This document shows, in pieces, positions 2,816 to 3,529 of a stretch of 30,568 bases of DNA. The stretch spans positions 1-30,568 of the forward strand of contig CAMWJR010000001.1 of assembly GCA_947174645.1 (NCBI GenBank), given 5' to 3'. The stretch's first letter is position 1; the number at the start of each line of letters is the position of its first letter. This DNA comes from an uncultured Verrucomicrobiota bacterium (GTDB lineage Bacteria > Verrucomicrobiota > Verrucomicrobiia > Opitutales > LL51). Both the position numbers and the translations under genes were made by a program. Below the pieces are notes generated by a model. The model saw only the letters and a program-made list of their open reading frames with translations, made no database searches and had not been told where the DNA came from.

Positions 2816-3529
2816 TTAAATTAAAAGACACGGGCAACCTTGACCACAAGTACAGAAATCGCTGTCCATTAAGATTTCTTTAAGCGAAACAACGGTCCGG
2901 ATAACGAGTGCTACACGGACAGCTTTTTGTAAAACAGGTACAACTTTGCTGTATGCCTCTTCGCCAATTTCTTGGGCGTGTTCGCGGCAGTATTTGAGCA
3001 AATCCGAAGTAATCGTTGTAAATTCGTCGATAAGTTCAACAGGTGAAAATCCTTCCCATTCCTCCTTGCGTTCCTGAAAATCATTAAGAATCTCTAGCGC
3101 GTCCTCGGCGCGGCCCTTAAGCATATCCATAGCATCACAGACACTTTGCATTTGATTTTGAAATTCCGCAACAACCTCGGGGTCACCTTCCAGTGTTTCC
3201 ACGCTCAGCTTTAACGCATGGTGAGAAGTTTCGAGAATTTTAATACAATTCTGCAGTTTTCGGATTGATTTTTCCAACGCAGAAGGATTTTCGACGTTCT
3301 CAAGCACCACTCCGCGAGTACGAATCCCATCACCTGAAGTTCCGTAAAGATCGTACTCCATCTGGTCGATAAGTTCATCTTCTGTCGCTTCATGAATAAG
3401 TGGCGTCAAAACAATGTTATGTGTCGAAAACGAATAAACGCTTTTAGGACGAGGTTTTAAAAAAGGTGTCGAACCAAAGCTAAACGAAGCGCCCAATCCC
3501 AGGCACGCGAAAAATAAACATTTTTTCAT
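2816..3529 (-). CDS. Secreted acidic alpha-helical protein with C-terminal Cys cluster and CaaX-like motif; function unknown
   Basis: 237 aa. Signal peptide MKKCLFFACLGLGASFSFG, amphipathic/coiled-coil-like middle, C-terminus DFCTCGQGCPCLLI-stop (checked at nucleotide level, 2816-2860). Confidence 0.8.
   Translation of the reverse strand: MKKCLFFACLGLGASFSFGSTPFLKPRPKSVYSFSTHNIVLTPLIHEATEDELIDQMEYDLYGTSGDGIRTRGVVLENVENPSALEKSIRKLQNCIKILETSHHALKLSVETLEGDPEVVAEFQNQMQSVCDAMDMLKGRAEDALEILNDFQERKEEWEGFSPVELIDEFTTITSDLLKYCREHAQEIGEEAYSKVVPVLQKAVRVALVIRTVVSLKEILMDSDFCTCGQGCPCLLI

Follow-up and report, generated by a model that had tools for sequence, protein, structure and literature searches.

Prenylation of bacterial proteins by the host is known from a few proteobacterial pathogens, in which it has been found effector by effector. 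Among eukaryotic proteins, H-Ras carries the tail C-M-S-C-K-C-V-L-S. RhoB, which ends in CINCCKVL, is isoprenylated and palmitoylated, and its tail works from fungi to humans (PMC4802854, PMC4160200). In the Salmonella enterica effector SifA, the extreme C-terminus joins a CaaX Cys with neighbouring Cys residues (motif CLCCFL, as cited in PMC3896991); the protein is prenylated by host GGTase-I and S-acylated (Reinicke et al. 2005, as reviewed in PMC4951486), and is thereby dually lipidated and membrane-anchored. Legionella pneumophila AnkB and PelA-K are host-prenylated CaaX effectors (Price et al. 2010, PMC2916131; Ivanov et al. 2010), with PelC and PelE listed among the Legionella CaaX effectors (PMC13081727), and host prenylation has been reported for Salmonella GtgE (PMC13423502). 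Through a C-terminal CaaX box, these proteins borrow the host farnesyl- or geranylgeranyl-transferase and become anchored on host or vacuole membranes. All of the experimentally established prenylated effectors found in the literature are T3SS or T4SS substrates. A precedent for export of another kind is provided by the chlamydial proteins cHtrA and CPAF, which are Sec-dependent and are found in the host cytosol (PMC3107777).

The locus compared with these systems lies in the window, by which is meant the whole stretch of 30,568 nucleotides that was analysed. The ORF list and the sequence give a 237-aa open reading frame with an ATG start and a TAA stop, divided as follows.

2816-3529, minus strand: coding sequence of the CaaX-tailed protein, stop included (ORF list, sequence, dN/dS)
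3473-3529, minus strand: Sec-type signal peptide, residues 1-19, SPase I cleavage being predicted after S-F-G (family conservation, rule-based screen)
3287-3472, minus strand: N-terminal region, residues 20-81, acidic, poorly modelled (pLDDT) and missing from most relatives
2867-3286, minus strand: four-helix up-down bundle, residues 82-221, the conserved family core (AlphaFold2 pLDDT about 84-97)
2819-2866, minus strand: flexible Cys-rich tail DSDFCTCGQGCPCLLI, residues 222-237 (pLDDT <50 over residues 225-233 and 235-237; orthologs)
2819-2830, minus strand: CaaX box C234-L-L-I237, candidate prenylation site (sequence, family conservation)

The protein terminates in ...DSDFCTCGQGCPCLLI followed directly by TAA, the CaaX codons being TGT CTT TTA ATT (window 2830-2819). 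Its four tail Cys residues occupy positions -12, -10, -6 and -4, in agreement with the sequence-only reading, which had described four terminal Cys, the last in C-L-L-I-stop; of these, Cys226, Cys228 and Cys232 are candidate S-acylation sites. The signal peptide proposed in the same reading also passed a crude rule-based screen. On this screen and on inspection, the leader consists of MKK and a 16-residue uncharged hydrophobic stretch ending in S-F-G, then S-T-P, and has the basic n-region, uncharged core and small-x-small site of a Sec/SPase I signal. All three elements are kept in the family consensus (MKKYSLL...S-F-A, then S-E), and an SPase I gene is present in the same genome. The N-terminus is predicted to be a cleavable Sec leader and not a signal of the T3SS or T4SS type. 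Processing as a lipoprotein by Lgt/Lsp was rejected: a lipobox was taken to be [LVI][ASTVI][GAS]C lying some 15-35 residues into the protein and kept in relatives, whereas the leader Cys is found at position 9 (12 in relatives), too early for such a box, is preceded by a variable residue (G, N, S or A) and is absent in P0008 and P0016.

The mature protein is acidic (pI 4.66; 38 D+E against 21 K+R), and an AlphaFold2 model built with a 16-row family alignment gave four confident helices at residues 82-110, 117-149, 164-188 and 190-221, with pLDDT mostly >90, which upholds the acidic helices of the earlier description. Residues 1-48 and most of residues 225-237 have a pLDDT <50, as do residues 64-72. 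The region spanning residues 20-81, which in the family alignment is found in the CLLI subgroup only, is probably disordered, with 10-residue-block mean pLDDT values of about 30-56, apart from one short predicted helix at residues 50-62. A Pfam search with the protein returned sub-threshold helical noise only, with neither a family nor a small-GTPase domain, and structure searches with Foldseek (PDB and AFDB clusters), VIA-align wide and ESM Atlas returned generic four-helix bundles only, from which no function is derivable; the best fold match (Z 12.3) falls short of the noise level for helical bundles, about 13.

Relatives were sought in the genus, with the protein and then with an alignment, and by an exhaustive HMM profile search of 1.84 billion protein representatives. 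Fourteen real representative relatives, and none beyond these, were found; they are 95-348 aa long, mostly 20-30% identical to the query, and align with many indels. A word-indexed homolog search with the family alignment gave no new members, and a search of genome contigs for related loci with the single protein gave no match. The family was not found in five of the 13 genomes of the genus searched, which are 64-91% complete.

The position of the CaaX Cys in homologs had been set beforehand as the test that could refute the lipidation reading: a Cys cluster retained in homologs that have lost the -4 Cys/aaX end would have counted against it. The reverse was seen, which supports the reading. 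A Cys stands exactly at -4 in 12 of the 14 representatives, and in 14 of 16 sequences once two close orthologs are added, and the Cys residues upstream of it drift. The 14 CaaX tails comprise ten distinct boxes.

CLLI: the window protein and its two orthologs
CLLL: three members
CILL, CLLF, CDML, CNIS, CNIM, CEVA, CEVM and CAVQ: one member each

Within these boxes the a2 residue is L in eight tails, V in three, I in two and M in one, and the X residue is L in five, I in three, M in two and S, A, F or Q in one each, and never charged, Pro or Gly. Geranylgeranyl transfer is preferred where X is L, F or I, and farnesyl transfer where X is S, A, M or Q; as the final residue of a CaaX box, Ile is less usual than Leu, Met or Ser. 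By these preferences, every X in the CaaX tails is predicted to be a residue accepted by farnesyl- or geranylgeranyl-transferase, and half of the boxes look suited to geranylgeranylation (X = L, F, I), the other half to farnesylation (X = S, A, M, Q). The CaaX rules behind this typing are those of Casey and Seabra 1996, as summarised in PMC4951486.

Just upstream of the box the alignment is full of indels; a Cys is found at -5 in 10 of the 14 tails, and P0007, P0009, P0015 and P0016 have the exact arrangement C-x-x-C-C-a-a-X. The two members without a box among the 16, P0008 (which has no Cys tail) and P0012 (which ends in G-C-E-S), are both tandem paralogs: P0008 adjoins a CNIS copy in G005, and P0012 is followed by another family copy. 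Every genome that has tandem copies retains one or more with a CaaX end. Tandem duplication was seen in G005 (L005:117-1687) and in the metagenome JGI contig L052, with two adjacent copies of which only one is known to be CaaX-ended. A fused two-domain form of 348 aa occurs in G007 (L013:829-1875) and ends in CLLL, as does a 95-aa, N-terminally truncated copy in G006.

The tail therefore invites comparison with the Ras/Rho type, in which a flexible tail bears the prenylated Cys at -4 and a palmitoylatable Cys 1-8 residues upstream. In the window protein a Cys likewise lies within about eight residues upstream of the CaaX Cys, on a flexible linker. The likeness to H-Ras drawn by the sequence-only reading holds for the Cys pair at -6 and -4, and the four members with C-x-x-C-C-a-a-X match RhoB exactly in this arrangement. 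Unlike the Ras and Rho proteins, the window protein has no GTPase domain; the resemblance would be one of short-motif mimicry and not of homology. With SifA it shares the joining of a CaaX Cys with neighbouring Cys residues at the extreme C-terminus; SifA, however, is a T3SS substrate of a gammaproteobacterial pathogen, has no Sec leader and has an unrelated fold, and its lipidation is experimental, whereas that of the window protein is inferred from sequence. AnkB, the Pel proteins and GtgE share the C-terminal CaaX box, and PelA and PelH offer a further likeness in that either transferase may serve. These, however, are delivered by a Dot/Icm T4SS or a T3SS and contain F-box, ankyrin or protease domains, whereas the present family has a Sec leader and a plain four-helix bundle, belongs to a verrucomicrobial lineage with reduced genomes, and keeps the box across the whole of a divergent family.

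The conservation of the box and these precedents, together with the anatomy of the protein and with the selection, compositional controls and genomic context described below, make it fairly probable that the family protein is an exported effector, prenylated and palmitoylated by the host. The Sec leader would carry the protein across the inner membrane, with SPase I cutting near Gly19. In the weakest step of the scheme, the mature protein would exit, most plausibly through GspD/GspE-like machinery or in vesicles, and reach the host cytosol. There, a host CaaX prenyltransferase would alkylate Cys234 of C-L-L-I, and the Leu-like X residue (Ile) suggests GGTase-I and probably a geranylgeranyl group; in relatives whose X is S, A, M or Q, a farnesyl group would be attached instead. 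Host Rce1 and ICMT would then process the end by removal of -LLI and methylation, and host DHHC acyltransferases would palmitoylate Cys232 and possibly Cys228 and Cys226. The doubly lipidated, flexible tail would pin the acidic bundle to a host membrane on its cytosolic side, and the bundle may act there as an adaptor or scaffold for some partner. For the export step, cHtrA and CPAF supply the precedent, as proteins of an intracellular bacterium of the PVC group that have cleavable signal peptides and arrive in the host cytosol; they differ in being proteases that lack lipidation motifs, and how they cross the inclusion membrane has itself yet to be settled. Two difficulties attend this step: tail Cys residues crossing the periplasm could be oxidised, and, if the bacterium is vacuolar, Sec/T2SS cargo would not automatically meet the cytosolic prenyltransferases.

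The genome that encodes the protein (G000) is an assembly of 764,889 bp in 87 contigs, 90% complete; 13 other genomes of the genus and three of a sister genus are all of 0.6-1.1 Mb, as against 1.3-5.1 Mb in most of the other families sampled in the order. The arginyl-tRNA synthetase encoded in the window shares 65-68% identity with proteins of Puniceicoccales MAGs, and the closest ortholog of the CaaX protein, at 90% identity, comes from a Verrucomicrobiota MAG. We infer an obligately host-associated bacterium of the Puniceicoccales (Verrucomicrobiota) with an intracellular life; no literature on this lineage or on the locus-tag prefix LW808 was found. An injectisome is present, since SctV (881 bits, cut-off 692) and SctC (333 bits, cut-off 238) exceeded their NCBIfam cut-offs. 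A GspD-like secretin scored 324 bits, just under its cut-off of 351, and an Amuc_1098-like pilus secretin is the third secretin of the genome, which also encodes three GspE/PilB-like ATPases and two GspF-type proteins. Neither flagellin nor VirB4 was found in this genome. The three secretin genes are scattered and unclustered.

C49:2046-4148, C15:688-3363, C2:26324-28993 and C30:6645-8666: injectisome and secretin genes of G000

Prenylation of the protein by the bacterium itself was also considered and set aside: protein prenyltransferase alpha/beta repeats were not found, a result of little weight given that the PF00432 control matched no control genome and was uninformative.

A Sec leader with no clear T3SS signal beside it suits display on the bacterial surface as well as release, and on this ground the protein could remain bound to the symbiont, its tail alone being lipidated or only S-acylated by the host so as to tether the symbiont to a host membrane. 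Such a role would share the tail evidence of the host-lipidated effector, and surface-to-host tethering would answer a known need of endosymbionts. After cleavage of the leader, however, no predicted membrane anchor, beta-barrel or lipobox is left to hold the protein, and we regard surface tethering as unlikely.

The Sec leader also predicts a periplasmic stage, at which a Cys-rich tail might do its work within the bacterial envelope, as a metal-binding (metallothionein-like or metallochaperone), redox or disulfide end of a periplasmic protein. CxC and CC clusters can bind metals, and four-helix copper-storage proteins are found among the many generic bundle matches. Those Csp matches, however, reach a Z of about 10.5, below the helical-bundle noise of about 13, and Csp-type proteins line the core of the bundle with Cys, of which the present bundle has three. 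A metal site was taken to need at least 3-4 conserved Cys ligands at fixed spacing, and the family does not offer these: the tails contain two to five Cys at variable spacing, with two only in P0011 and P0014, which is too few and too variable for such a site. The spacing between the last Cys and the stop is, by comparison, constant, and neither this spacing nor the aliphatic a2 and transferase-compatible X residues would be needed for metal binding. The sequence-only reading had named a metallothionein-type CxCxxxCxC motif as its alternative, and this is disfavoured by the same variation in number and spacing, -4 alone being constant; a fixed -4 geometry with drifting upstream Cys residues fits prenylation plus S-acylation instead. 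A function of the tail in the envelope is accordingly held to be quite improbable.

The reality of the gene was assessed with its two orthologs, which are 90% and 81% identical to it and of equal length, and whose tails differ from its own by one or two substitutions. The two comparisons give dN/dS values of 0.082 (90% ortholog) and 0.055 (81% ortholog), so the gene is real and under purifying selection. Across residues 222-237, seven or eight of about nine synonymous sites differ from the 81% ortholog and the peptide is kept, and the Leu codons of the box differ among the three orthologs (CTT TTA, CTC CTA and TTG TTA); synonymous sites are near saturation beside an almost unchanged tail.

Compositional controls were drawn from two genomes. 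In G000, Cys makes up 1.5% of residues and stands at -4 in 10 of 674 ORFs, as at other terminal positions; canonical CaaX-like ends number four, against 2.3 expected, and two of the 90 leader-bearing ORFs have such an end, against 0.28 expected. In G003, a divergent genome of the same genus of which all 38 contigs were taken (919,572 bp, 833 ORFs), Cys stands at -4 in 19 ORFs, compared with 8-18 at the other nine positions counted, and no leader-bearing, effector-like ORF other than the family member has a canonical CaaX end. These background levels argue that the CaaX end belongs to the family and not to the lineage at large, and a lineage-wide use of CaaX tails was rejected. The anaerobic ribonucleotide reductase-like protein of the window (NrdD, 16070-18181, minus strand) ends in ...CPRCAAM with a CxxC pair before it; as the end of a cytoplasmic housekeeping enzyme, this looks like a chance CaaX look-alike and serves as a negative control. 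That the tail of the family is likewise a historical accident of a fast-evolving orphan, without a role in lipidation, finds some footing in the CAAM end of NrdD and in the near-chance frequency of CaaX-like ends in G000, but is highly improbable, as the tail is under strong purifying selection and chance is excluded by a Cys at -4 in 14 of 16 members, with ten canonical boxes, in proteins otherwise diverged to about 20% identity.

Besides the CaaX family, one metallo-beta-lactamase-like paralog alone stands out. This leader-bearing protein of 484 aa (G000 C17:7516-8970, minus strand, corresponding to L016:2017-3471, minus strand) has a weak metallo-beta-lactamase match (HLHDDH) and ends in a polybasic run and a CaaX box (...REKKTDQRKCLLL), like the tails of Rac1 or K-Ras4B. 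The polybasic CaaX end is kept in one of the two G004 copies; most paralogs in the genus have acidic tails, and a paralog in the sister genus (L034 1231-2256) ends in CNTM.

The evidence for host lipidation of the family is evolutionary, in that an orphan family of an uncultured, genome-reduced lineage keeps an exact CaaX geometry amid wide divergence. The differences from the known cases lie in the phylum, the unrelated and unannotated four-helix-bundle family, the cleavable Sec leader and the use of family-wide conservation as evidence. Confirmation would extend the host-lipidation strategy to the PVC group and to symbionts, would mean that proteins with Sec leaders can be host-cytosol effectors, and would make the 12-16-residue tail a ready marker for the host membrane that these bacteria manipulate. 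The family also offers a clean test case for the use of C-terminal motif conservation to pick effectors in genomes without known effector signals. A broader proposition is put forward tentatively: that this is a Sec-exported family with a deeply kept Ras/Rho-type dual-lipidation tail that switches between farnesyl and geranylgeranyl boxes, and that a Sec/T2SS-like route feeds the host cytosol. Were this so, a general Sec/T2SS-like route, and not the injectisome alone, would supply the host cytosol in reduced genomes, and the RhoB-like tail would direct the bundle to endolysosomal membranes, which the symbiont has to control. No host-lipidated effector family outside the Proteobacteria, and none with a cleavable signal peptide, would have preceded it.

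The neighbourhood of the gene combines fixed and rapidly changing elements, of which the following are closest to it.

3540-3567, minus strand: promoter-like TTGTAA-16-TACAAT element upstream of the gene (consensus scan), conserved in three orthologous loci
3609-3682, minus strand: tRNA-Gln(CTG), upstream flank, same strand as the gene (ARAGORN, Rfam)
2684-2759, minus strand: tRNA-Arg(TCT), downstream flank, same strand as the gene (ARAGORN, Rfam)

The order tRNA-Gln, gene, tRNA-Arg is kept in all three orthologous loci, and the same tRNA-Arg adjoins distant family members in G006 and G011, which are thereby positional orthologs. P0016 is likewise a positional ortholog: its contig repeats the gene order of the window, with a pseudouridine synthase, an orphan of about 700 aa and a Mur ligase, followed by a radical-SAM protein, orphans and the family gene.

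Effector-like genes flank the CaaX gene on either side. Those of the window are OTU-like, with PGDG-x-C-x-F-W boxes, and in G003, G008, G010 and G011 the family gene is immediately preceded by a gene for a UCH/USP ubiquitin protease scoring above the Pfam gathering cut-off. These eukaryote-type proteases, found in four other species of the genus, have no obvious Sec leader and differ in this from the OTU-like neighbours of the window. As ubiquitin is a eukaryotic substrate, the proteins of this islet make sense only in contact with the host cytosol.

L006:37-1065, L004:4-1266, L010:1350-2618 (minus strand) and L011:29-1255: USP/UCH protease genes (PF00443, up to 142 bits)
Window 1355-2569 and 3928-4740: flanking effector-like genes, compared with L002:2502-3518 and L002:247-1320

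The CaaX proteins of G000 and G004 share 90% identity, compared with 34% for the upstream OTU-like neighbour, and the downstream neighbour is essentially unrelated. To judge from these sequence comparisons, the flanks of the CaaX gene turn over quickly, which argues against a specific complex of the bundle with a neighbour such as the putative deubiquitinase. The last 30 nt or so of the G004 upstream gene can still be recognised at about 3735-3760 of the window, which suggests gene replacement beside the tRNAs. A conserved GCTTGCCATT block, found upstream of both tRNAs in the three loci (window 2770-2800 and about 3700-3730, minus strand), is probably the -35 region of the tRNA promoters.
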